A DNA stretch of 64,000 nt from a virus (IMGVR_UViG_3300031994_000015:30276-94275); one strand, 5' to 3'. Counted from the first letter of the stretch, positions 12,861 to 38,134 are shown. Program-made: numbers and translations. The notes: a model not told the origin generated them from the sequence alone.

Positions 12861-13838
12861 ATGGATTACGCAAAAGTTTTTGAGACAATGGTTAGTGAGA
12901 CACAGAAGTATCTTGAGAATAATAACCTTTTCGCTATGATTCTTGGTATTTCTGGTGGTTTGGATTCTACTGTAACTGCGGCAATTTGTCATGAGGTTGA
13001 GAAACGAAATCCTGAGTTGAAGTTCTATGGTGTATCTCTTCCTTGCTCATCTAATACAATTGATGAGAATAATTCTGCAAATGCTTGTATGAAGGCATTT
13101 TGTAAGAAAGATCAGTATTGGACTGAGAATCTTCAGAAGGAGTATCTACTTATGAAAGCTACTTGTTCACAGCGCCATTCACCAACGACAATTGGGCAGG
13201 GAAATATCAAAGCTCGTCTTCGTATGATTTATCTTTATGACCTTGCAAATTATACTAAAGGTCTTGTTATGGACACTGATAATCTTACTGAGCATTATCT
13301 TGGATTCTTCACCATTCATGGGGATGTTGCTGATTTTAATCCAATTGGTGGACTTTGGAAACATGAAGTATATGAGCTTGCAAAATACATTCGTGATAAG
13401 TATGAGAATGATATGAAGCATTATCCTATGAGTCCTGATTCATTTGACATTATCGATGATATCAATGCTATAGACGATTTCAAGAACAAAATTGCCGCTC
13501 TTGATGCCGCACTTGGTATTCGTCCTACTGATGGAAATGGTGTAAATGACCTCGGTGATATGGGTCAGATTGCTCCAGCATTTGCACATGATAAGAATGT
13601 AGATGCTTATACTAAGGTTGATGACATCATTAAGACATATCTTTATGCAATCACTCAGTTCCCTGATGAGCGTGATAAGATGATTCAGGCACTTCGTGAT
13701 AAGTATGATGTAGATAATGACCAGGTAACTTATAAGACTGTTGATGGTGTTATCAATCGAATTAAGTGGACTGAATACAAGCGTAAAGGACTTCCTGTAG
13801 TTATTCCGAACGAGAAATATATTACCAAATTTGTTTAA
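12861..13838 (+). CDS. nadE: NH3-dependent NAD+ synthetase
   Basis: LGISGGLDST P-loop, GNIKARLRM, TDNLTE..LGFFTIHGD, PIGGLWKHEVY; no glutaminase domain. Confidence 0.92.
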   Translation: MDYAKVFETMVSETQKYLENNNLFAMILGISGGLDSTVTAAICHEVEKRNPELKFYGVSLPCSSNTIDENNSANACMKAFCKKDQYWTENLQKEYLLMKATCSQRHSPTTIGQGNIKARLRMIYLYDLANYTKGLVMDTDNLTEHYLGFFTIHGDVADFNPIGGLWKHEVYELAKYIRDKYENDMKHYPMSPDSFDIIDDINAIDDFKNKIAALDAALGIRPTDGNGVNDLGDMGQIAPAFAHDKNVDAYTKVDDIIKTYLYAITQFPDERDKMIQALRDKYDVDNDQVTYKTVDGVINRIKWTEYKRKGLPVVIPNEKYITKFV

Positions 13839-13852
13839 TTTTTATATTATAT

Positions 13853-13880
13853 TTGAATTTTTTATAATTATATCTATATT
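13853..13880 (+). promoter_or_regulatory. TTGAA-N16-CTATATT promoter motif
   Basis: exact copy. Confidence 0.75.
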
Positions 13881-13909
13881 GTAATTGTAAAACAAATAAA
13901 TATAAAGAT

Positions 13910-14314
13910 ATGAATACAATTCCAGTTTCAATGGTCAATGAGGTGATGGGAGTTCAGAAATCTGATAATTCAAACCTCTATGTAGGACTTGCAGGTACAA
14001 TGTTTGTAGGTTCTGATCGTTATGCAGTTGTAATTACAGAGGTAATTTCTCCCAAAGAAGTTCGAGTTGCAAACATGATAGATGAGGATTACAACTCAAA
14101 TATCATGATCGATGGAAATACTATGGAATATATCGCTCCACATAATATGATAAAGTATGCCCGAGTAAATGCCGAAGGTACTTCTTTTATAGCCACTGGT
14201 GATATTTATAAGCTTCGTAAGAATGGACGTTGGGTTGAGAAGGGACATGGTCTTTGGGAAACTGGAGCAGTTCATTTTGGTCATGCAGATGAGTACAGAG
14301 ATCCGAGTTTTTAA
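13910..14314 (+). CDS. hypothetical protein
   Basis: ORF after promoter motif. Confidence 0.8.
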   Translation: MNTIPVSMVNEVMGVQKSDNSNLYVGLAGTMFVGSDRYAVVITEVISPKEVRVANMIDEDYNSNIMIDGNTMEYIAPHNMIKYARVNAEGTSFIATGDIYKLRKNGRWVEKGHGLWETGAVHFGHADEYRDPSF

Positions 14315-20040: not shown

Positions 20041-21999
20041 ATGAGCAACAAAGTTTTTGGAATTGACCTGGGAACAGGTTTTAGTGCTTGTGCCATTATT
20101 GAAGGTGGCAAGCCAGAAGTAATCGCTAATGGTGAAGGACATCGTACCACTCCTTCAGTAGTTTTTATTAAAGGCGATGAACGTAAAGTCGGTGATGCGG
20201 CTAAACGTGGTATGGTAATGAATCCTAAGAACACAGTATCATTTGTAAAGCGTTTTATGGGTGCTGATTGGAATGATGCTGATGTACAAAAAATGCTTAC
20301 TATGGTAACTTATGATGTTGTCAATAAGAATGGTAAGCCTTATATTAAGATTGACAACAAAGAATATTCTCCAGAAGAAATTTCCTCTTATATTCTTGCT
20401 GAAATGGCTAAAGTAGCTTCTGACTATTATGGTGAGGAAGTTAAGAAGGTTGTTATTACAGTTCCTGCATGGTTTAATGATGTTCAACGTAAAGCTACTA
20501 AGTTAGCTGGTGAACTTGCTGGTCTTGAAGTACTTCGTATTATAAATGAACCTACAGCCGCAATTCTTTCATCTGATATTGATACAACTAAAGGTGATAG
20601 AACAGTTATGGTAGCTGACTATGGTTGTGGTACTTTGGACTTCTCTATTTGTGAATGTTCAGATGGTATGATTGAGGTATTAGCATCTGATGGTGATGTA
20701 TTCCTTGGTGGTCAAAACTATGATAATAGAATTGTAGATTGGATGGCTGAGGAGTTTATGAAGGATCACCCAACTATTGACCTTCGTAAAGATCAAATGG
20801 CTTATGCTCGTTTGGTAGAAGCAGCTGAAAAAGCAAAATGTGAACTTTCTACTTCTATGCAAACTGAAATTAACCTTCCATATATTACTGTATTGGATGG
20901 TGCTCCACAAATGCTTATACTTACACTTACACGTGCTAAGTTTGAGTCATTAGTAGCTGATTTGAATAATAAAGTAGTTGAAATTGCTAAGCGTGCTCTT
21001 AATAAAGCTGGAAAGACTGCTTCAGAAATTAATGATATTCTTCTTGTAGGTGGTTCTTGTCGTATTCCATCTGTTCAAGATGCACTTAAAAATAACTTTG
21101 GTGATAAGCTTAACAAGACTGCTAATTTCGATGAAGCCGTTGCACTTGGTGCAGCTAAGCAAGCTAAAGCTATTGTAAACCCAGAAGATACTGATACATT
21201 ACTTCTTGATGTTACACCTATTACATTAGGTATTGAGGTTAATGGTAATATGATGGGTAAGCTTATTGAAGCTAATACTACAATTCCTTGTAAGAAATCA
21301 CAAGTATTTACTACTGCTGAGGATAATCAACCTGCTGTATCAATTGTAGTTCTTCAAGGTGAACGTCCAATGAGTAAAGATAATAAGCAAATTGGTATGT
21401 TTAATCTTGATGGTATTGCACCAGCTCGTCGTGGAGTTCCTCAAATCGAAGTAACATTTGATATTGATGCTAATGGTACACTTACCGTATCAGCTAAGGA
21501 CCTTGGTACTCAAAAAGAACAACATATTACTATTGATAATTCTAATTCTCTTTCACAAGAAGAAATTGATCGAATCAAGAAGGAAGCTGAAGAGCATAAG
21601 GAAGAGGATAATAAGAAGAAGGCAGAAATGGATAAGTTGAATGCCGCTGAAGGATATATCTATAATGTTGAGAAATCACTTAATGATGAGAATCTTAAAG
21701 ATAAGTTTACAGATGATGAACGTAAGCATCTTGAAGATTTAGTAGCTAAAGGTAAAGAAGCTATTGATAGTAAGAATAATGATAGTGTCTATGCTGCTAA
21801 GGATGAACTTCAAAAGGTATATGATCCAATCATTACTAAGATTTATCAAGCTAATGCACCTAAAGATGCAAATGGTAATCCAAAAGTAGATCCTAATTTC
21901 ATGAATCAATTTAATGATATGTTTGGTGGTGCAAGTGGATTTGCTGGAGGTCAAAATTTTGACCCATCACAATTTGCAACTGCAACCCCTAAGAATTAA
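20041..21999 (+). CDS. dnaK: Hsp70 chaperone DnaK
   Basis: GIDLGT, TTPSVV, TVPAWF, RIINEPTAA, LLLDVTPITLGIE, GVPQIEVTFDIDANG. Confidence 0.97.
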   Translation: MSNKVFGIDLGTGFSACAIIEGGKPEVIANGEGHRTTPSVVFIKGDERKVGDAAKRGMVMNPKNTVSFVKRFMGADWNDADVQKMLTMVTYDVVNKNGKPYIKIDNKEYSPEEISSYILAEMAKVASDYYGEEVKKVVITVPAWFNDVQRKATKLAGELAGLEVLRIINEPTAAILSSDIDTTKGDRTVMVADYGCGTLDFSICECSDGMIEVLASDGDVFLGGQNYDNRIVDWMAEEFMKDHPTIDLRKDQMAYARLVEAAEKAKCELSTSMQTEINLPYITVLDGAPQMLILTLTRAKFESLVADLNNKVVEIAKRALNKAGKTASEINDILLVGGSCRIPSVQDALKNNFGDKLNKTANFDEAVALGAAKQAKAIVNPEDTDTLLLDVTPITLGIEVNGNMMGKLIEANTTIPCKKSQVFTTAEDNQPAVSIVVLQGERPMSKDNKQIGMFNLDGIAPARRGVPQIEVTFDIDANGTLTVSAKDLGTQKEQHITIDNSNSLSQEEIDRIKKEAEEHKEEDNKKKAEMDKLNAAEGYIYNVEKSLNDENLKDKFTDDERKHLEDLVAKGKEAIDSKNNDSVYAAKDELQKVYDPIITKIYQANAPKDANGNPKVDPNFMNQFNDMFGGASGFAGGQNFDPSQFATATPKN

Positions 22000-28014: not shown

Positions 28015-29463
28015 ATGAGTAAGATTAATTCCACAAGAAAGTCAAAGACTCTTAAGTCTAACCAAACATCTGTTGGTGAAATCGCAGGTGTAGTAACTAA
28101 CACTGCCGCTGCTCAATCAAATATTCAGCTTCTTCGTAGAGCTGTATTGGCAAACCTCCTTTGGGAGAATATTGCATATATGGATGGTGAATCTGTAGCT
28201 GCAGAAATCAAGAGACTCATCCCTCTTTGCAATCCAGAGGATGTTGCTTTGCTTACTGTAGAGGCTCGTACTATGCAGAAGCTTCGTCACACCCCATTGT
28301 TTCTTGCAGTTGAGATGTGTAAGCATGATGCAACTCGTCCTTATGTTAAGGATGTACTTCCAAAGATCATAACTCGTGCAGATATGCTTACTGACTTTAT
28401 GGCTCTTTACTGGGCTGATGGTAAGTGTCCTATCTGTAATGCAGCTAAGAAGGGTCTTGCAGAAGCATTTCACAACTTCAAGGAGTATCACTTCGCTAAG
28501 TATGATCGCGATGCAGAGATTAAGCTTCGTGACGTAATGTTCATGGTACGTCCAAAGCCAGAGAATCAACTTGAAGAGCTTCTTTACAAGAAGATTGCTG
28601 ACCGTACTCTTGAGACACCAGAAACTTGGGAGGTATTGCTTTCAAAGGCCCACACACCTGAAGAGAAGGCTGCTGTTTGGACAAAGCTTATTACCGAAGG
28701 TAAGATTGGTGGTAAGGCAATGCTTATGAACATTCGTAACATGCAATCAGCTAAGGTTGCACGTCCTATCATTGAGCAAGGTCTTCGTGAGATTAAGGGA
28801 TCTATGCTTCTTCCACTTGACTTCTTGAAGGCTATGCGTGAAAGCAATGGTTTCGAGAGAGAAATTGAAGATGCTATGCTTAAGACATATGAGAATATGC
28901 CAAAGCTCCCTGGTAAGACATTGTTCATTGTAGACGTATCAGGTTCTATGGGTTCAATCACTTCAAGTGGTTCTATATTCTCACGTTTGGACCAGGCTGC
29001 AGCTATGGCTATGCTTGCCGCTAACCAATGTGAAGACTTCGAACTTGTATGTACTGCTGGTTATGACAGTACTTGTGAGGAGCACCAGGAAATGATTGAA
29101 TATCCTTCTAAGGGATTCAAGATGTTCCAGCAAATTCGTGAAGCTGCTAGTCGTCTACATGGTGGTGGTATTTTCACATACCAATGCCTTGAGAAGCTTC
29201 GTTCAAAGCTTGGTAGTAAGATAAATGATTACGCTCGTATCATTGTCTTCTCAGACTCTCAAGATATTGATGTTTCCCATGGTCGTAATGTAAAGCCACG
29301 TCCATTTGGTAAGTACAACTACATCTGTGATGTATCTTGTCATACCCATGGTATTAACTACAATGGAGTATGGACAGCTGAAATTTCTGGTTGGTCAGAG
29401 CACTTCCTTACTTACATTGCCGCTTTTGAAGGTATTGAGAACACATTTGAGGATCTTAACTAA
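28015..29463 (+). CDS. TROVE-domain Ro60-like RNA-binding protein with vWA domain
   Basis: LRHTPLFL, AKY.RD, KLRDVMF..RPKP, TPETWE, LLPL, TLFIVDVSGSM (MIDAS), VFSDSQ. Confidence 0.88.
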   Translation: MSKINSTRKSKTLKSNQTSVGEIAGVVTNTAAAQSNIQLLRRAVLANLLWENIAYMDGESVAAEIKRLIPLCNPEDVALLTVEARTMQKLRHTPLFLAVEMCKHDATRPYVKDVLPKIITRADMLTDFMALYWADGKCPICNAAKKGLAEAFHNFKEYHFAKYDRDAEIKLRDVMFMVRPKPENQLEELLYKKIADRTLETPETWEVLLSKAHTPEEKAAVWTKLITEGKIGGKAMLMNIRNMQSAKVARPIIEQGLREIKGSMLLPLDFLKAMRESNGFEREIEDAMLKTYENMPKLPGKTLFIVDVSGSMGSITSSGSIFSRLDQAAAMAMLAANQCEDFELVCTAGYDSTCEEHQEMIEYPSKGFKMFQQIREAASRLHGGGIFTYQCLEKLRSKLGSKINDYARIIVFSDSQDIDVSHGRNVKPRPFGKYNYICDVSCHTHGINYNGVWTAEISGWSEHFLTYIAAFEGIENTFEDLN

Positions 29464-29824: not shown

Positions 29825-30445
29825 ATGAATAATATAGATATTGTAAATATTAAGAAAGAATTAGCTAAGCGTAAGGCGACTAATTATGAATGGAAAGATG
29901 GTGGTGAAATGGCTAAGGATGATATTATGCTTCGCACCACCAAAGAGTTAAATGAACTTCTTAAGGATTATGAAAATGCCAAGAATAATAAAATTTCTGA
30001 AAAGGTACATAAATTAGTTGATGAAATATTTGAGAAATATGCAGATGAAGGTGACAACATGATTCCATTGTCATGCGCATATCGACCAGAATATCGAATT
30101 TATGGTAATGCTGGTATTGAAGTATATAGTTCAGTAATGTTTAGTGACATAGATGGCTATAACGATAATCCTAAAGTAAAGCCAATTGCCCGTAATTGGT
30201 ATGAGGAAGATAAACGTTGGGAAAACTATACTAACGATTTGGAGAAATTAGTTGATGAAATTTTTAAAACTAAAGTTCCTTTGGCAGAAGACTTTTGGAA
30301 AGACAATGGAGACCGCCTTAATGAATATTGGTATGGTGTAATTGCAATTACCCGTAATTATAAAATTGTAGGATTTGAAATGCGAAATGATGGTCTACCA
30401 CAAGATGATAATAAATTGAATTATCCTTGTATAATGACTATATAA
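29825..30445 (+). CDS. hypothetical protein
   Basis: ORF track, 206 aa. Confidence 0.8.
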   Translation: MNNIDIVNIKKELAKRKATNYEWKDGGEMAKDDIMLRTTKELNELLKDYENAKNNKISEKVHKLVDEIFEKYADEGDNMIPLSCAYRPEYRIYGNAGIEVYSSVMFSDIDGYNDNPKVKPIARNWYEEDKRWENYTNDLEKLVDEIFKTKVPLAEDFWKDNGDRLNEYWYGVIAITRNYKIVGFEMRNDGLPQDDNKLNYPCIMTI

Positions 30446-30469
30446 TAATTATATAATTAATTTATTGAA

Positions 30470-30546
30470 GCCGGCATACTGGAAACAGTCACTGCGACAG
30501 TCGGGCATAACTTATCATTATTTGGTAGGTTATGCTCGATTTTTTT
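30470..30546 (+). ncRNA. candidate small structured RNA or attenuator
   Basis: GC-rich intergenic island: ACTG-GAAA-CAGT hairpin, then 17-bp stem and T tract. Confidence 0.35.
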
Positions 30547-30571
30547 GTTTAAATATATTAACATTAAAATT

Positions 30572-30727
30572 ATGAGTAAAACGGTAGATTATTGGAGAGC
30601 AAAAGATGACAGAAACTACATGCAAGTGCTTGATTCAAGGATAAGCAACCATGAATGTACAAGATCTGAAGCTGCATGGGACTATGAACGCTATAGCAAT
30701 CATATGTACCCAAATAAATATATTTAA
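30572..30727 (+). CDS. small hypothetical protein
   Basis: ATG 30572 with AT-rich leader. Confidence 0.6.
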   Translation: MSKTVDYWRAKDDRNYMQVLDSRISNHECTRSEAAWDYERYSNHMYPNKYI

Positions 30728-30735
30728 ATTTAATT

Positions 30736-30864
30736 ATGACATCAAAAGAATGGGAAGAAAAATGGGGTAGCCCTAAAGAAGCATGGGAAAAAGATCCTCC
30801 GGTGTATGACAAAAGAGGAAGATTAATACATATACCCGAATGGGAATATGATAAAATGTTTTAA
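30736..30864 (+). CDS. micro-ORF, 42 aa Trp/acidic
   Basis: manually translated MTSKEWEEKWG...EWEYDKMF. Confidence 0.5.
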   Translation: MTSKEWEEKWGSPKEAWEKDPPVYDKRGRLIHIPEWEYDKMF

Positions 30865-30883
30865 AAATATATTCATTAAAATT

Positions 30884-30916
30884 ATGGGAGATTGGGAATA
30901 TGATTGGGAAGATTAA
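30884..30916 (+). CDS. possible 10-aa peptide MGDWEYDWED
   Basis: same leader type as neighbours. Confidence 0.25.
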   Translation: MGDWEYDWED

Positions 30917-30937
30917 TACATATATTTAAATTGTATT

Positions 30938-31057
30938 ATGACTTTGGAAGAAGCAATTCAACATTGTGAAGAAAAAATTGATAACACTTTATGTGGATTA
31001 GAACATCGTCAACTGAGAGATTGGTTGATTGAACTTAAAGAAAGAAGGAGCTCTTAA
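30938..31057 (+). CDS. micro-ORF, 39 aa (MTLEEAIQHCEE...)
   Basis: manually translated. Confidence 0.55.
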   Translation: MTLEEAIQHCEEKIDNTLCGLEHRQLRDWLIELKERRSS

Positions 31058-31072
31058 GAGCTCCTTCTTTTT
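31041..31072. terminator. bidirectional terminator between convergent blocks
   Basis: AAAGAAGGAGCTCTTAAGAGCTCCTTCTTT perfect palindrome. Confidence 0.85.
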
Positions 31073-31832: not shown

Positions 31833-32345
31833 TTATTTATTTAGTGATTCATTAACTTCCATATTAGCTTCAGCTTCAGCTTTTTGTTTCTTTTGCATAA
31901 GTTCATCTAATTCATTTTGAACTTTTTCAATTTCTTTCAATATTCCTTCTAATTTTTTAGCTCCTTTAGTTCTGATAAAATCTTGTATAGCTTCTTTAGA
32001 TGTCCCAACATAATACGTTGAAGTTTTTCCTTCAGTATTACTTAAAGCCATAGGTTTAACTTGATATTTTTCATCAGAATAATCAAAATTTCTTCCATAA
32101 TGAGGTTCAGTCCAACCATCAATATTATATTCATTTTGAGCTAATTCAATATTGATATCATATCCATCGGTACCACGATACCAAGAACCTTTTACCTTAT
32201 AAGTATCTACTACTTTTACAGGAATAGCTTTTGTTTCTCCATCTTTTAAAACCCATAAAGTTGAACCTTTACGAGGATTATGAACGTTTTTGGCAGCTGC
32301 TTCTACTATAAGTCCTTCAAAAATTTTGTCTTGTAAATTTTTCAT
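31833..32345 (-). CDS. putative capsid-internal protein (leader MKNLQDKIFE)
   Basis: shared N-terminal leader; CDS confident, function inferred. Confidence 0.6.
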   Translation of the reverse strand: MKNLQDKIFEGLIVEAAAKNVHNPRKGSTLWVLKDGETKAIPVKVVDTYKVKGSWYRGTDGYDINIELAQNEYNIDGWTEPHYGRNFDYSDEKYQVKPMALSNTEGKTSTYYVGTSKEAIQDFIRTKGAKKLEGILKEIEKVQNELDELMQKKQKAEAEANMEVNESLNK

Positions 32346-32347
32346 AA

Positions 32348-32626
32348 TTAAAATATACTTGGTATTTTTGATAAATCAGCATTTGAAAAGTCAAGATGGA
32401 ATTTATCTATTTCATGTTTACTATGATCTCTACAATAAATTTCAATTTCTTTAAAATCTACATTCATTAATTCATATCCATCTTTATCAATTTCTGTAAC
32501 ATCTGATTGGTCTTTACCATCACCTTTCCAAATAAGGATTTCACGAACCCCAGAATCTTTATAATCCCAAAGACACCATTCACCTTTTGGTGCATTTTCT
32601 GTTACAATTTGTGTTAAATTTTTCAT
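32348..32626 (-). CDS. putative capsid-internal protein (leader MKNLTQIVTE)
   Basis: shared N-terminal leader. Confidence 0.6.
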   Translation of the reverse strand: MKNLTQIVTENAPKGEWCLWDYKDSGVREILIWKGDGKDQSDVTEIDKDGYELMNVDFKEIEIYCRDHSKHEIDKFHLDFSNADLSKIPSIF

Positions 32627-32643
32627 ATTTTGATTTTATGTAT

Positions 32644-33024
32644 TTATTCTTTACCTACAACTACTAAAACATAATCACCATTATTGAAATTCTTCTTAAG
32701 AGTTTCTTTTGTTTTATAATCACCTTCAGATGATAAAAGTATTTCATCTCCTGAACCCTTTTGCCAATAGAATGTCACTGTTGCATTTACCCAATACTTT
32801 TTTAATTTATCCCAACGAATAAAATAAAGCTTGTCATCTTTGTCACAGTCACGTTCAATCATGGTTACAGCTTCTTCATATGATTCAGCATGATCGGTGA
32901 TTTTCATATCTTTACTATATATTGCTCCGACTAATGTTTTACCATCACTTCTAATTTCTGATTCAGATGGATCAAATACAGGAACATTAGTTGATTCAAT
33001 TATAAATGTTTTAATGTTTTTCAT
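32644..33024 (-). CDS. putative capsid-internal protein (leader MKNIKTFIIE)
   Basis: shared N-terminal leader. Confidence 0.6.
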   Translation of the reverse strand: MKNIKTFIIESTNVPVFDPSESEIRSDGKTLVGAIYSKDMKITDHAESYEEAVTMIERDCDKDDKLYFIRWDKLKKYWVNATVTFYWQKGSGDEILLSSEGDYKTKETLKKNFNNGDYVLVVVGKE

Positions 33025-33025
33025 A

Positions 33026-33283
33026 TTATTTATGATATAAACTTTTTATTTTTTCTTCAATCATTGACCAGCCATAATCTTCTGCTTCTTCATCACCGGT
33101 CATAAAATATACCATAGTAGCAATAAAACCTCTATCACCATCTTTCCATTCATCCCAAATTTCTTCAATTCTATCATGAAATTCTGGATAAGACATACAC
33201 CATTCAGGTACTTTTTTCAAAGGTCTAAGTTTAGGTAATTCATCCTTTTTAGCTTCTATTATTTTATCTTTAATATCTCTCAT
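33026..33283 (-). CDS. putative capsid-internal protein (leader MRDIKDKIIE)
   Basis: second ATG gives leader and 1-nt gap to upstream gene. Confidence 0.6.
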   Translation of the reverse strand: MRDIKDKIIEAKKDELPKLRPLKKVPEWCMSYPEFHDRIEEIWDEWKDGDRGFIATMVYFMTGDEEAEDYGWSMIEEKIKSLYHK

Positions 33284-33284
33284 A

Positions 33285-33770
33285 TTAATCATCCCATATA
33301 TTTAGAAGTTCTCTTTGAAGCTTTTCTACTTTAGGATTAAGTTCTATAATTTTCTTTTTAATAGCATCAATTTCATCAGCAAGTTTATTGAACTTTTCAC
33401 CATATTCTTGTGCTAATTCTTCAGCTTTAGCCTCATCACCTTTTACATATAGAGCACCAACTTCCTCTTCTTGGTCAATTTGTAAATCTCTATATTCACG
33501 AGTTCTATCTTTAAGGTCTTGATTAAGTCCCCAAAGTTTATCTTCAAGTGGATCTAATGTTTTACGAAGTTTCTTTTCAGCTTCTAATCGTTTAACATAT
33601 TTATCATGTTCAGCTTTTGCTAATGCAGCTTTTTGTGCTTCTTCTTCAGGATCCGGATCAGCTACCCAAAGAGTTACAATTTCACCTGTATCTTCATCGA
33701 CAAAATCCTCATAATGGCCATTCTTGCCATCTTTTTCAGATTCTTTTATATATTTATATAAGTCTTTCAT
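33285..33770 (-). CDS. putative capsid-internal protein (leader MKDLYKYIKE), coiled-coil
   Basis: shared leader; EDFVDEDTGEIV segment. Confidence 0.6.
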   Translation of the reverse strand: MKDLYKYIKESEKDGKNGHYEDFVDEDTGEIVTLWVADPDPEEEAQKAALAKAEHDKYVKRLEAEKKLRKTLDPLEDKLWGLNQDLKDRTREYRDLQIDQEEEVGALYVKGDEAKAEELAQEYGEKFNKLADEIDAIKKKIIELNPKVEKLQRELLNIWDD

Positions 33771-34021
33771 TATACTCCTTCACTTTTATATATTTTTTTC
33801 CAAGGCCAATCATGAGGACCTTTGTCGCCTCTCTCATCAAAATGACAAGCATCTATTTGATACCATTCATCGTCATCATTCCAAGTGTAACGAAGACATA
33901 AACCTTTATCTTCCTTACCTTTTATGTATTCAAGAACTTTTTTCAAATCCTCTGGAGAAAGAACAATTGTTTCTTCATCAGCTATTTTTTCGGTTATCAA
34001 ACATTCTTTTAAATCTTTCAT
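33770..34021 (-). CDS. putative capsid-internal protein (leader MKDLKECLITE)
   Basis: shared N-terminal leader. Confidence 0.6.
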   Translation of the reverse strand: MKDLKECLITEKIADEETIVLSPEDLKKVLEYIKGKEDKGLCLRYTWNDDDEWYQIDACHFDERGDKGPHDWPWKKIYKSEGV

Positions 34022-34287
34022 TATTCATGTGTTGATTTATTTTTAGCATCAAAATAATCTTTCATATCCCAAATGAATTGATTTACATTTATATCATAAC
34101 TTTTCTTTTGAAGTTTTTCTATTTCTGTAAATACATCATCAAATAATTTTTTAACATATTCACTATATTGGACATTAAGATTTTCTAATTGTGATAAATC
34201 ACTTGCCATTTTACGAGCAATATCTTTTGTTATTGCTTTATCTAAATTTCCTTTAGATTCATTTATCATGGTAACTATATCTTTCAT
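34021..34287 (-). CDS. putative capsid-internal protein (leader MKDIVTMINE)
   Basis: shared N-terminal leader. Confidence 0.6.
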   Translation of the reverse strand: MKDIVTMINESKGNLDKAITKDIARKMASDLSQLENLNVQYSEYVKKLFDDVFTEIEKLQKKSYDINVNQFIWDMKDYFDAKNKSTHE

Positions 34288-34292
34288 ATTCT

Positions 34293-34592
34293 TTATGCTT
34301 CTATTTCATTAAAATTTTTAATTTTGAATTTGCCAGATACATGATCAGCGGCAAATAAAGTTACTTCGTATTGTGTATCAATATATTCACCAACAAATAC
34401 AAGTTTTTCATCTGATGAATCTTCTTCAACAAAATCAAAACCTGCTTTATACATTGCATCTTTAATATCATCAAGTTTAGCCATCTTAAAACCATTTCTG
34501 ATATTACCAAATTCCTTAAGGGCAAGACCTATTTCTTCATGTAAGTCTTCATCTTGAGTTGATTCTAATATAAAATCTTTAATATCTTTCAT
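34293..34592 (-). CDS. putative capsid-internal protein (leader MKDIKDFILE)
   Basis: shared N-terminal leader. Confidence 0.6.
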   Translation of the reverse strand: MKDIKDFILESTQDEDLHEEIGLALKEFGNIRNGFKMAKLDDIKDAMYKAGFDFVEEDSSDEKLVFVGEYIDTQYEVTLFAADHVSGKFKIKNFNEIEA

Positions 34593-34594
34593 AA

Positions 34595-34894
34595 TTACTT
34601 TAACGCAGTTATAATTTCATATTCGTTTTTAGATGATACATGTACCATACTTTCATTCTTCTTTAATCTATCTGAATCATGGCATATATCACGTATTTCA
34701 TCATCTTCATATCCACCCCATTCATCATATAATGAATAAAGTTGTTTTAGGTCTTTAAACAAATAACCTTTACACTTATCACCATTTGAAACAGTTACCA
34801 TTGAAAACATTGCTTCACCATATGGTATGTAATCCTCTAATGATTCTTTAATAACATTATCAGTTATTTCTATTATATCTTTTAAATTTTTCAT
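34595..34894 (-). CDS. putative capsid-internal protein (leader MKNLKDIIE...VIKE)
   Basis: shared N-terminal leader. Confidence 0.6.
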   Translation of the reverse strand: MKNLKDIIEITDNVIKESLEDYIPYGEAMFSMVTVSNGDKCKGYLFKDLKQLYSLYDEWGGYEDDEIRDICHDSDRLKKNESMVHVSSKNEYEIITALK

Positions 34895-34896
34895 AA

Positions 34897-35172
34897 TTAT
34901 GCATTATCTTTATATTCACTAAAATCAAGAAGTTTTTTCTTCTCGCAATAATCACCAATAAGTTCAACGATATCTTGTAAATATCCTGCATCCTTATCTT
35001 TATCACCTCTACAAATATCGGCCCCAGTTACTTCATTTATTATATCCATAATAAATCTTAAAAATTCAGAAACATCTTTTGCTTCTTTATCTGCATAATC
35101 AAATACAGCATCCCAAGCTTTATCTTCTAAATTTTTACTTTCATTTATTATTTTTTCTTTAAGGTCTTTCAT
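34897..35172 (-). CDS. putative capsid-internal protein (leader MKDLKEKIINE)
   Basis: shared N-terminal leader. Confidence 0.6.
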   Translation of the reverse strand: MKDLKEKIINESKNLEDKAWDAVFDYADKEAKDVSEFLRFIMDIINEVTGADICRGDKDKDAGYLQDIVELIGDYCEKKKLLDFSEYKDNA

Positions 35173-35372
35173 TATTTATTATTTTTTATATCTTTATAAA
35201 CCATAGTTAATATAACTATCAATTGTTGTGAAGTTATTTCTCCTTCACTTGAATGACCTATATATTGTATTAAGTCATCATTTGCTCCTAATTTTTCTAA
35301 TTCTTTAAGTTGAGACGGAAATCTATCTTTATTTAGAACTTCATTTATTAATTTATTTTTAAGATCTTTCAT
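35172..35372 (-). CDS. putative capsid-internal protein (leader MKDLKNKLINE)
   Basis: shared N-terminal leader. Confidence 0.6.
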   Translation of the reverse strand: MKDLKNKLINEVLNKDRFPSQLKELEKLGANDDLIQYIGHSSEGEITSQQLIVILTMVYKDIKNNK

Positions 35373-35388
35373 ATTTATAAAATAGTTT

Positions 35389-35598
35389 TTATTTATTTTT
35401 CATTCCTATATGCCATTTTCCACAGACCTTACAAATATATGTAGTATATCTATACATTTTATATTTTTTTATCCAAGCTAAGGCTTCAGTTTCTGTTTCA
35501 AATTTTTGTTTAGGTTTCCAATCACCTTCCTTTTTGGCATAATGTTCACGTTTAATAACATGTTTGTTACAATCTGATCTTGCTCCTAATTTTGCCAA
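35389..35598 (-). CDS. small zinc-finger-like protein
   Basis: YICKVCGKWHIG; similar to 44327..44608. Confidence 0.65.
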   Translation of the reverse strand: MAKLGARSDCNKHVIKREHYAKKEGDWKPKQKFETETEALAWIKKYKMYRYTTYICKVCGKWHIGMKNK

Positions 35599-35648
35599 TA
35601 TGTTGACTTAAATAATTTTGGTATTATCACCTCTATTATTAACTTAAT

Positions 35649-36149
35649 TTAATCTTCATACTTTTCTAATTTTTTCTTAAGAAGATCATCTATCTTTTCT
35701 TGAACTTTAGCTTTCTCAGATTCATATTTTGCCATTATTTTTTCCATTTCTTTTTCAAGTTCTTTAACATCTTTGTCAATAATTTCTTCTTGAAAATCAT
35801 TTAGCAATTCTCTATCTGTAGCTACATAATGGAATACTGTATCATCACCAAAACCACATATATTTATATAAAGTTTCTTTTCAAAATCTTTTCTATAGAT
35901 AAAGCATGATCCATTTTTGTTTTTGTTTTTACGTGTAAATTTGATTTCCCACATTTCTTCGGTAGTATAACTTCCTAATGACATAGGTTCATGATAATAT
36001 ACTCCATCAACAGAACATACTTCTATTTTATGGTTTCTATCACTATTATAAACATCTAAATAATAAAGTGTATCTCCTTTTCTAATTTGCTTAAAGGTTT
36101 TATCTTTAGACTCATTAGCTTCAAAAATTTTATCTTTTAAAGTTTTCAT
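35649..36149 (-). CDS. putative capsid-internal protein (leader MKTLKDKIFE)
   Basis: shared N-terminal leader. Confidence 0.6.
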   Translation of the reverse strand: MKTLKDKIFEANESKDKTFKQIRKGDTLYYLDVYNSDRNHKIEVCSVDGVYYHEPMSLGSYTTEEMWEIKFTRKNKNKNGSCFIYRKDFEKKLYINICGFGDDTVFHYVATDRELLNDFQEEIIDKDVKELEKEMEKIMAKYESEKAKVQEKIDDLLKKKLEKYED

Positions 36150-36172
36150 TGACGTTATTTAATATCTTTTTA

Positions 36173-37342
36173 TTAATCCATAGCACCAAATCCATCTACG
36201 GGTTTACCGTCATCACCATCTAATCCTTTGTCTTGTAATTTAACTTTACCATAAGATGTTCCATTAGCACCAATAACTTCAAATTCACATGTTGTATGCA
36301 TTCCTGAAAGCCAACTACCAGTATGATGTGATAATTCTTTAATTTCAGGCATTTTCTCATCAGATTCTAAATAAGCTTTAGCAGCTAATTTATAAAGACC
36401 ATCAACACCCCAAGATATGCGAGAATAACTACCAAATGATTTTTCTAAAACCTTTTGAACATCATCTTTAATCTTTTCAATTGCATCAGCTAATTTTTTG
36501 GCTTCTTCATCTTTTTTTATTTTTTCTGCAAATATCTTTTCCCATTTCTTATAGTTTTGTTCTGTTGCTTCTAAGTCATCTTCAACTTTATCTAATATTG
36601 CAACAATATCTTTATATAAATCTGATTTTCTAAAGGCCTCGCGCATTTTCTTTATTTTCTTAGAATCCTTTTCATATTCTGCTTCAGCCTTTTTATAAAC
36701 TTTACTTGATTTTTCTTCTCTTCTATTATCATTTTTAGGCTTAGATGTTTGATCCCACATTTCTTGATATTTACCATATACTGAATCTGTTTTCAATATA
36801 TTAAATTTATCATTAAACTTTGGAATATTAACATTATAAGCTTGCGCAATAACACTTAATGCAAGATAAATAGAAAATGTAAATCCTGATGATTCAGACC
36901 AGAATAATGTGACATCTTTATCCCATGAATTTCTTTTTTCGGGTTGACGTGTTTTTGTGAAACTTGCAACTTTTATATCATCTGTTTCTAATGCAATTCT
37001 TGCTTCTTTTGTTGCTTTTTCTACAAAATCAAAGAAATCTTTATTGCCATTTTCGTCTTTTCCATAGAAATTATCAAATGTACAATTTTGGGCATTAAGA
37101 ATAAAGTTATTATGCCCTTTTTTAGAAGTCATTGCTGTTTTAAGTTTATCAACAAGAATTTCGAAATTCTCTGTATTTATCTTAATTACAGATTCTTCAT
37201 ATTCTTTATATTTATTCTTCATTTCATCTTTTGTACTTTTAGGCATGCCAGGATAGAAAAATGGTTTATTCATTGATTGTGGCAAATCTAAATATTTTCC
37301 ATCTTCTTTAGATTCAACTAAAAAATCAATTAAATGTTTCAT
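36173..37342 (-). CDS. putative capsid-internal protein, 389 aa (leader MKHLIDFLVE)
   Basis: shared leader; long helical region. Confidence 0.6.
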   Translation of the reverse strand: MKHLIDFLVESKEDGKYLDLPQSMNKPFFYPGMPKSTKDEMKNKYKEYEESVIKINTENFEILVDKLKTAMTSKKGHNNFILNAQNCTFDNFYGKDENGNKDFFDFVEKATKEARIALETDDIKVASFTKTRQPEKRNSWDKDVTLFWSESSGFTFSIYLALSVIAQAYNVNIPKFNDKFNILKTDSVYGKYQEMWDQTSKPKNDNRREEKSSKVYKKAEAEYEKDSKKIKKMREAFRKSDLYKDIVAILDKVEDDLEATEQNYKKWEKIFAEKIKKDEEAKKLADAIEKIKDDVQKVLEKSFGSYSRISWGVDGLYKLAAKAYLESDEKMPEIKELSHHTGSWLSGMHTTCEFEVIGANGTSYGKVKLQDKGLDGDDGKPVDGFGAMD

Positions 37343-38042: not shown

Positions 38043-38057
38043 CTTATATAAAAATAA
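38043..38057 (-). promoter_or_regulatory. candidate late-type motif TTATTTTTATATAAG
   Basis: similar TTATTTTTA-W3-AA upstream of other minus-strand genes, tmRNA and GT pair. Confidence 0.35.
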
Positions 38058-38076
38058 ATTTTTTCATAAACAATAT

Positions 38077-38104
38077 TTGAAAAACCTAAAATAAATTCTA
38101 TATT
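38077..38104 (+). promoter_or_regulatory. TTGAA-N16-CTATATT promoter motif
   Basis: exact copy. Confidence 0.75.
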
Positions 38105-38134
38105 ATATATGTAAAACAAATAATAAACAAAGAT

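Follow-up and report, generated by a model that had tools for sequence, protein, structure and literature searches.

How do 13 consecutive viral genes come to encode proteins that share their first ten or so residues and almost nothing else? The question is raised by an array of open reading frames (ORFs) on the minus strand of a 64,000-nt stretch of DNA (IMGVR_UViG_3300031994_000015:30276-94275), hereafter the window, i.e., the whole stretch that was analyzed, which belongs to a linear IMG/VR viral contig of 158,275 bp, from a huge, uncultured phage of the sheep gut, with 29% G+C and an estimated completeness of ~56% (CheckV). Window and genome coordinates are kept apart in what follows. An earlier note had likened the common leader of these ORFs to the capsid-targeting sequence (CTS) of phage T4 and had proposed that the array encodes packaged and injected effectors. 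All 13 ORFs exist as described there, tightly packed between window positions 31833 and 37342 with intergenic gaps of -1 to 50 nt, and their starts hold as listed, except that the ORF at 33026-33292 (MINMRDIK...) most likely begins at its second methionine (33283), so that it reads MRDIKDKIIE. The pattern M-K-x-[LI]-x-x-x-[ILV]-x-E is present in 13/13; most of the leaders (nine genes) have 10 residues, three have 11 and a single one has 9. The encoded proteins span 66-389 amino acids (aa) and differ in predicted architecture; past residue 12 they give no mutual BLASTP match, as the note had claimed, with the exception of the 170-aa and 166-aa proteins, which are weak paralogues (E 5e-4). We consider it likely that the leader is a T4-type CTS and that the proteins bearing it are loaded into the prohead, cut by a gp21-type protease and carried in the head.

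Chance is excluded as the source of the shared leader. A regular expression built only from the T4 internal proteins IPII and IPIII, MK....[FY]I.E[AS], matched 13 of the 484 ORF N-termini of the contig (mean 0.003 and maximum 1 in 1000 shuffles), and a looser form of the T4-derived expression matched 27 of them (0.17 expected). The consensus drawn from the whole contig reads M-K-[DNS]-[IL]-x-x-[YF]-I-x-E|[SA], where the bar marks the predicted cleavage point: positions 4, 8 and 10 are conserved in every leader, positions 3, 5, 6 and 9 vary, and position 7 is Tyr or Phe in 20 of 28 leaders genome-wide. Conservation begins at the ATG and ends at the Glu of codon 10-11, the mean nucleotide identity between leaders being 19.4/30 as against 11.1/30 for codons 11-20. 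Synonymous codons differ while the residues are fixed (four codons for Leu/Ile4, five at position 8); the DNA upstream of the array genes is unconserved, no Shine-Dalgarno sequence is seen, and the codons following the ATG are A/T-rich. Because synonymous codons vary and the upstream DNA is unconserved and devoid of a Shine-Dalgarno sequence, the constraint must bear on the peptide. This peptide is amphipathic (hydrophobic moment, muH, 0.53 vs. 0.32 in shuffles), like the T4 CTS, and lacks the hydrophobic stretch needed for secretion. In a cleavage-motif test, the leaders were found to have an invariant Glu at P1, Ile, Leu or Val at P3, and mostly Ser, Ala or Gly at P1'.

The CTS that T4's internal proteins carry was reportedly described by Mullaney and Black in 1996. 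In T4, the internal proteins IPI, IPII, IPIII and Alt carry such a sequence, which is removed by the gp21 prohead protease (PMC9026906, PMC9958956, PMC3012670). Suppressor scanning of the IPIII CTS assigned targeting mainly to residues 4 and 7 and processing to residues 8 and 10, and replacement of residue 10 by Asp blocked cleavage while targeting was retained (PMC9026906). Residues 4, 7, 8 and 10, mapped in this way in T4, coincide with the positions conserved in the leaders of the contig, residue 7 less strictly so than the other three. Read from AF158101, the T4 leaders are MKTYQEFIAE|A (IPII and IPIII), MKTFKEFTSTTTPVSTITE|A (IPI), MAKINELLRE|S (gp24) and MLKEQLIAE|A (gp22). Both systems share a tag of ~10 residues at the extreme N-terminus with M1, K2, a mostly aromatic residue 7, I8, E10 and a small residue 11, a predicted cleavage after Glu with Leu or Ile at P3, a gp21-family protease together with a gp23-family capsid protein, and cargo bodies that are alike only in the tag. 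On the other hand, position 4 is Leu or Ile here and Tyr or Phe in T4; at least 32 tagged genes occupy half a genome here (~11%), mostly in three long arrays, as opposed to a handful in T4; the protease is here fused to a repeat-rich, scaffold-like region; and the host is probably a rumen member of the Bacteroidota, the system being known here from its sequence alone.

The gp21-like prohead protease, whose presence the earlier note had left to be checked, is encoded on the contig as a Peptidase_S77 domain (T4 gp21; PF03420; 47 bits vs. a Pfam cut-off of 27). BLASTP against T4 gp21 (E 1e-5) aligned its GELEHP and SSRGAG with GELNHP and SSRGLG of T4, i.e., the catalytic His and Ser motifs, and both motifs are invariant in 15 relatives. 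Equally invariant in 15 relatives is the N-terminus of the protease itself, MTNKRCL[VI]YE|T, a site which parallels LIE-9 of T4 gp21, and near the N-terminus of the capsid protein (residues 36-42) stands IHEIHE|S. The protease forms the N-terminal part of a 566-aa protein that continues with an acidic linker, a coiled coil and 12-residue repeats in 5-11 copies, and this fused form is common to >2,600 database proteins. The AF2 model of the 566-aa protein reached a pLDDT of 41, and a sequence search of the PDB with it gave no match. Next to the protease gene lies a Gp23-type capsid gene (PF07068, 105 bits), and sheath and tube genes then follow; a portal gene was not found on this genome fragment, nor was the protease found in the relatives G001 and G002, the records of which are both fragments. 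In the relative L018, a T4-type portal gene neighbors the orthologous array. The repeat of the protease-scaffold protein (genome 131382-133082; L009 17382-19082) reads QNWVxEEFAPEV, occurs in tandem and differs in copy number between relatives; these repeats may be scaffold or cargo-docking elements.

The leader, which the earlier note had described for this one array, also tags two further arrays on the plus strand of the same contig, at genome 117.9-124.7 kb (the head genes start shortly downstream) and 153.2-158.3 kb (to the contig end), so that 32-35 of ~285 genes (~11%), including a few isolated ones, carry it. Tagged proteins outside the window array fall in different known families, a P-loop kinase and a sigma-like protein being examples. 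The distribution of the tagged genes follows promoter class. A strong, sharply conserved early promoter, TTTGAA-N17-TCTATATTATATWTGTAAAA, occurs in 21 copies, all on the plus strand and 15-25 nt before an ATG (e.g., window 38073-38118), and neither the leader arrays nor the head genes have a copy upstream. A second element, the TTATTTTTA box, precedes, at a distance of 30-100 nt, the genes for protease, capsid protein, sheath and tube (4/4 recognizable virion genes), all three array heads and, in relatives, the T4-type portal gene and orthologues of the 389-aa gene. The box and the early promoter precede 23 and 17 genes, respectively, without overlap. When each gene was assigned to the nearest upstream element on its strand, a crude proxy for operons, 31 of 33 tagged genes fell in box units (31/91 box-unit genes) and none among the 129 genes of early units (Fisher p ~4e-14), which bears out the earlier impression that the leader is missing from the plus-strand early ORFs. 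The window array itself is part of a 16-gene minus-strand unit that runs from such a box to a terminator (Table 1) and includes three genes without the canonical leader: a 69-aa Zn-ribbon ORF, a 250-aa ORF, and the 225-aa head gene, whose version of the leader has no Glu. Pieces of the array were found by exact match in three sheep-gut RNA libraries (assembled contigs, in which DNA carry-over is possible), compatible with its transcription; the many short-sided joints among these matches were set aside as cross-matches to strains related to the phage. Other promoter scans added little: the T4 late promoter TATAAATA occurs 89 times (~86 expected) and is uninformative, a generic Bacteroidota promoter expression gave 16 sites (10.7 expected), and a sigma-70 scan stayed at chance level.

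The 389-aa family comprises 57 clusters of homologues, down to 40% identity and on contigs of up to 533 kb. In 27 aligned members (40-90% identity), E10 never varies and S11 hardly does; non-key leader positions differ even among orthologues that are 88-90% identical; two atypical members have longer N-termini and nevertheless show ...ILE|S or ...INE|A right before the conserved body. A pattern scan of viral contigs gave no relative of the 170-aa protein, and an exhaustive search gave 30 representatives of its family: all 18 examined start with the leader and have [ILVM]-x-E directly before the AAAK body, often as two tandem sites. In these two families, the [ILV]-x-E site before the body is kept down to 25-40% identity. 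In the AF2 model of the 389-aa protein (pLDDT 83), the leader stands apart as a helix of its own (residues 4-10), and the linker that comes next is of low confidence. A fold search with this model against the PDB and BFVD returned no match at E<=0.001; the array proteins gave no functional match in Pfam or PHROGs, and a DNA search of the phage collection with the array gave no match at all. An atlas search revealed a weak beta-barrel match like PF24203 for the 170-aa protein and no match for the 126-aa protein.

Comparison with G002, a 157-kb phage in which 28 of ~209 genes are tagged, shows where homology breaks off. The two genomes have ~5 kb of DNA in common (69-72% identity), G002 encodes orthologues of just 3 of the 13 array proteins, and the 389-aa cassette is 87% identical between them. 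The homologous stretch covers the end of the 389-aa gene and the spacer behind it, includes precisely the 30 nt of the following leader (29/30 nt), then stops, and the bodies beyond this breakpoint (166 aa here, 141 aa in G002) are unrelated. Among four relatives, 4 of 22 ends of homology blocks lie in the interval from +28 to +34 nt relative to a gene start (0.33 expected). Such breakpoints between leader and body indicate that the leader is a module to which different bodies are attached where cleavage is predicted. Many leaders of relatives show a second conserved stretch right after the Glu, ALIKKDTKL in L018, KLKVNSKSK in L003 and KLQI in G002, which is absent from the window array and looks like a lineage-specific linker.

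From these data we infer the docking, cleavage, packaging and ejection of the tagged proteins. The 16-gene unit would be transcribed from the type of promoter used by virion genes. The leader, as a short amphipathic N-terminal helix, would dock to the core of the assembling prohead through residues 4 and 7 (with Met1 and Lys2); upon closure of the shell, the gp21-type protease would cut after [ILV]8-x-Glu10 and free the mature protein inside the head, in which it would be carried and probably ejected along with the DNA. The tag itself is a portable module: phages acquire, lose and trade cargo cassettes, and the boundary between leader and body recurs as the joint. The earlier proposal of a capsid-targeting tag system gains from a tag on unrelated proteins that matches the T4 CTS, the presence of the protease, the preserved Glu junction, the shared promoter box and the modular junctions, and none of the three refuting conditions named in the note, as far as they can be checked in silico, went against it. 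Its other half, an arsenal for anti-defense or host takeover, is a guess by analogy with T4 IPI, because no function is assignable to any of the 13 proteins.

Several observations weigh against a T4-type CTS. In the window array, position 7 is aromatic in just 4 of 13 leaders and Lys in ~6, whereas it is mostly Tyr or Phe in the other two arrays. The mature cargo is mostly acidic (isoelectric point, pI, 4.3-6.3), in contrast to the basic IPII and IPIII of T4 (PMC9026906). The IHE|S site of the capsid protein could not be aligned with the gp23 maturation site, as BLASTP against T4 gp23 and gp24 gave no alignment. Cargo amounting to ~11% of genes would demand a large capsid capacity or a low copy number per species. 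In the promoter-class comparison, the tagged genes amount to just 3-5 independent units; the TTATTTTTA 9-mer occurs no less often than base composition would lead one to expect (35 sites vs. ~28); most of the genes preceded by the box have no annotation, PHROG being too sparse for a temporal class; and the "late" character of the box is deduced only from the genes that lie downstream of it.

The main remaining alternative, to which we give a rather small chance, accepts that the tagged proteins go to the prohead and are cleaved there, and holds that they serve as parts of the assembly or core, as T4 gp67, gp68 and IPIII do, or as fillers that tune pressure, many being degraded or lost, and not as injected effectors. 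In T4, the core genes 67, 68, 21 and 22 sit downstream of the portal gene. L018, a 264-kb relative, has the leader on at least 18 of 35 genes within 21 kb; four of these tagged genes come right after a T4-type portal gene in its operon, which also speaks for a CTS, and hold the position of those for gp67 and gp68. The acidic, coiled-coil-rich proteins of the window array resemble pieces of a scaffold. However, a repertoire of which only the three orthologues mentioned above are shared with G002 turns over too fast for essential assembly parts, other arrays encode enzyme domains (the P-loop kinase and the sigma-like protein), and the bodies are well folded and varied.

A machine other than the capsid could also read the leader, be it a chaperone or unfoldase, a degradation or secretion route, or an enzyme modifying peptides in the manner of those acting on ribosomally synthesized and post-translationally modified peptides (RiPPs). 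We regard this as improbable. A DnaK gene does lie in the window, a ClpX-like gene stands beside an orthologue in L016, and the contig has radical S-adenosylmethionine (radical-SAM) genes. Yet these last (genome 19088, 85299 and 143327) are at least 17 kb from every array and look like activases of nucleotide metabolism, the one that was scanned resembling an anaerobic ribonucleotide reductase activase or QueE. Moreover, the leader offers no invariant modifiable residue, and its invariant feature, a Glu that has [ILV] at the second position before it, is what gp21-type enzymes are specific for; the protease itself starts with a like site, and a secretion-type hydrophobic stretch is wanting.

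Still less credit is due to the idea that the shared start is a feature of the nucleic acid, acting in translation initiation without a Shine-Dalgarno sequence or as a recombination joint, with no role for the peptide. The A/T-rich codons after the ATG would suit the former, and the ends of homology blocks at the leader boundary, which recall shuffling by promoter/stem-loop cassettes (PeSL; PMC2839356), the latter. This idea is hard to reconcile with codons that vary under fixed residues, with an E10 that is invariant to 40% identity, with highly expressed virion genes that have no leader, and with internal or tandem leader-like sites kept away from the start codon (P0055, P0043, genome 119749 and 123131). 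Finally, a single old family of paralogues with diverged bodies and a tag devoid of sorting function, to which the tandem arrangement and the weak 170-aa/166-aa pair might point, is the least plausible reading of all, given the range of lengths (66-389 aa) and architectures, the different known families of tagged proteins elsewhere, the leaders joined to unrelated bodies at an exact junction, and non-key leader positions that evolve faster than the body.

If the leader is a T4-type CTS, as we think likely, it can be placed among the known systems. The principle of CTS-tagged cargo is already in print for T-even phages, of which the contig holds an expanded, array-organized variant; what is new here is the segregation by promoter class, the match to CTS positions mapped by mutation, a Glu junction that does not vary in two families, and the exact breakpoints between leader and body. 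As in the variable internal-protein loci of T-even phages, the tagged set turns over quickly between relatives and the tag is the sole conserved element; the scale is far larger here, the leader/body boundary is an exact homology breakpoint between divergent phages, and a tagged cassette is as much as 87% identical between phages that otherwise barely align. In phiKZ, 201phi2-1 and SPN3US, long propeptides of ejection or inner-body proteins are cut at (S/A)-x-E by gp175 or gp245 (PMC5694885). These phages likewise process many head-internal proteins after Glu by a gp21-related protease, and their propeptides are thought to target the prohead; however, such propeptides mostly exceed 100 residues, share no short consensus and have Ala or Ser at P3. 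A propeptide of this type was ruled out for the array, the leaders of which have 9-11 residues (up to ~15-34 in a few relatives), a shared consensus and I/L/V at P3, as in T4. In the hyperplastic regions of T4-type phages, modules are shuffled by means of PeSL cassettes (PMC2839356, PMC4122927). In both cases, the points at which one gene gives way to another between related phages fall on short conserved boundary sequences, but the boundary element is here a coding 30-nt leader under selection at the protein level, and its role in recombination is only suggested.

On a wider scale, it is possible, though we would not count on it, that huge, T4-related phages which form a large and abundant clade in ruminant guts devote roughly every eighth gene to a capsid-addressed protein, that the whole injected proteome of these phages (dozens of proteins in each, enzymes among them) can be read from sequence, and that the 30-nt leader doubles as a joint of exchange for cargo cassettes between otherwise divergent phages. 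Should the tag work as in T4, the injected proteins of widespread uncultured huge rumen phages could be listed from their N-termini, and, as they would act before any phage gene is expressed, this list would be a catalogue of candidate counter-defense or takeover factors of unknown fold, starting with the 13 described here. How proteins localize to the scaffolding core is stated to be an open problem in the T4 literature (PMC9958956), and dozens of natural leader variants, along with a protease fused to a repeat-bearing scaffold, provide material for comparison. The exact leader/body junctions suggest how repertoires of cargo diversify; if the leader does double as such a joint, the result would be a plug-and-play system for the evolution of first-strike proteins. 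A short natural tag from a second lineage would also add to the means of loading foreign proteins into phage heads.

The features of the 16-gene unit are collected in Table 1.

Table 1. Features of the minus-strand transcription unit, in window coordinates and in the order of transcription; the bar in a leader marks the predicted cleavage point.
Feature	Position	Strand	Remarks
Promoter-type box TTATTTTTA	38049..38057	-	31 nt upstream of the unit's first gene
Head gene of the unit, 225 aa	37349..38026	-	Starts MKSILEYLNRN; leader positions 1, 2, 4, 7 and 8 kept, Glu10 absent; G002 orthologue MKNITEFLNRN
Putative cargo gene, 389 aa	36173..37342	-	MKHLIDFLVE|S; family of 57 clusters, to 40% identity; no known fold
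Putative cargo gene, 166 aa	35649..36149	-	MKTLKDKIFE|A; leader at 29/30 nt on an unrelated 141-aa body in G002
Zn-ribbon-like ORF, 69 aa	35389..35598	-	Leaderless; basic, pI 9.8; conserved inside the array of the distant relative L018
Putative cargo gene, 66 aa	35172..35372	-	MKDLKNKLINE|V, 11 residues
Putative cargo gene, 91 aa	34897..35172	-	MKDLKEKIINE|S, 11 residues
Putative cargo gene, 99 aa	34595..34894	-	MKNLKDIIE|I, 9 residues
Putative cargo gene, 99 aa	34293..34592	-	MKDIKDFILE|S; G002 orthologue 81%
Putative cargo gene, 88 aa	34021..34287	-	MKDIVTMINE|S; DNA homology in L003 limited to the leader
Putative cargo gene, 83 aa	33770..34021	-	MKDLKECLITE|K, 11 residues
Putative cargo gene, 161 aa	33285..33770	-	MKDLYKYIKE|S; acidic body rich in coiled coil
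Putative cargo gene, 85 aa (corrected start)	33026..33283	-	MRDIKDKIIE|A
Putative cargo gene, 126 aa	32644..33024	-	MKNIKTFIIE|S
Putative cargo gene, 92 aa	32348..32626	-	MKNLTQIVTE|N; G002 orthologue 72%
Putative cargo gene, 170 aa	31833..32345	-	MKNLQDKIFE|GLIVE|AAAK, with the [IL]xE site twice in tandem
Last gene of the unit, 250 aa	31072..31824	-	Zn-ribbon motifs; leaderless
Terminator-like hairpin	31041..31070	-	13-bp stem; ends the unit; convergent with a plus-strand terminator at 30499-30541

Two of the untagged genes of this unit deserve comment. The 225-aa head gene combines leader positions of the targeting type with the lack of the Glu, and its product might be targeted yet left uncleaved, by analogy with the Asp10 mutant of T4. 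The 69-aa basic Zn-ribbon ORF has in L018 an orthologue (13801-14016) that is 61% identical and also lies within a leader array, and it is the sole conserved untagged member of the arrays.

Outside the window array, the third leader array is headed by the gene for a 385-aa sigma-factor-like protein (genome 151544-152701; L010 17544-18701; phrog_351, E 5e-13), which has the 9-residue leader MKKITSILE|S and lies downstream of a virion-type box. Tandem leaders, or an internal leader before a second domain, occur at genome 119749 and 122189-123421 (including the site at 123131) and in P0043 and P0055; such proteins suggest fusions of cassettes at leader sequences, and their cleavage would possibly release two products.

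Two other loci of the window lie apart from the leader arrays. A plus-strand gene at window 20041-21999 encodes a phage DnaK that shares 64% identity with its counterpart in the Prevotella megaphages Lak-A/B, a likeness which fits a host among the Bacteroidota. Also on the plus strand, window 28015-29463 encodes a 482-aa protein with TROVE (Ro60-like) and VWA domains, downstream of which an ORF-poor gap (window 30446-31040) coincides with a sharp peak of contig depth in 2 of 3 sheep metatranscriptomes (bin 30204-30737). The gap has no Rfam match, folds well (z -3.5), and its RNA could be a Y-RNA-like partner of the product of the phage Ro60 gene.

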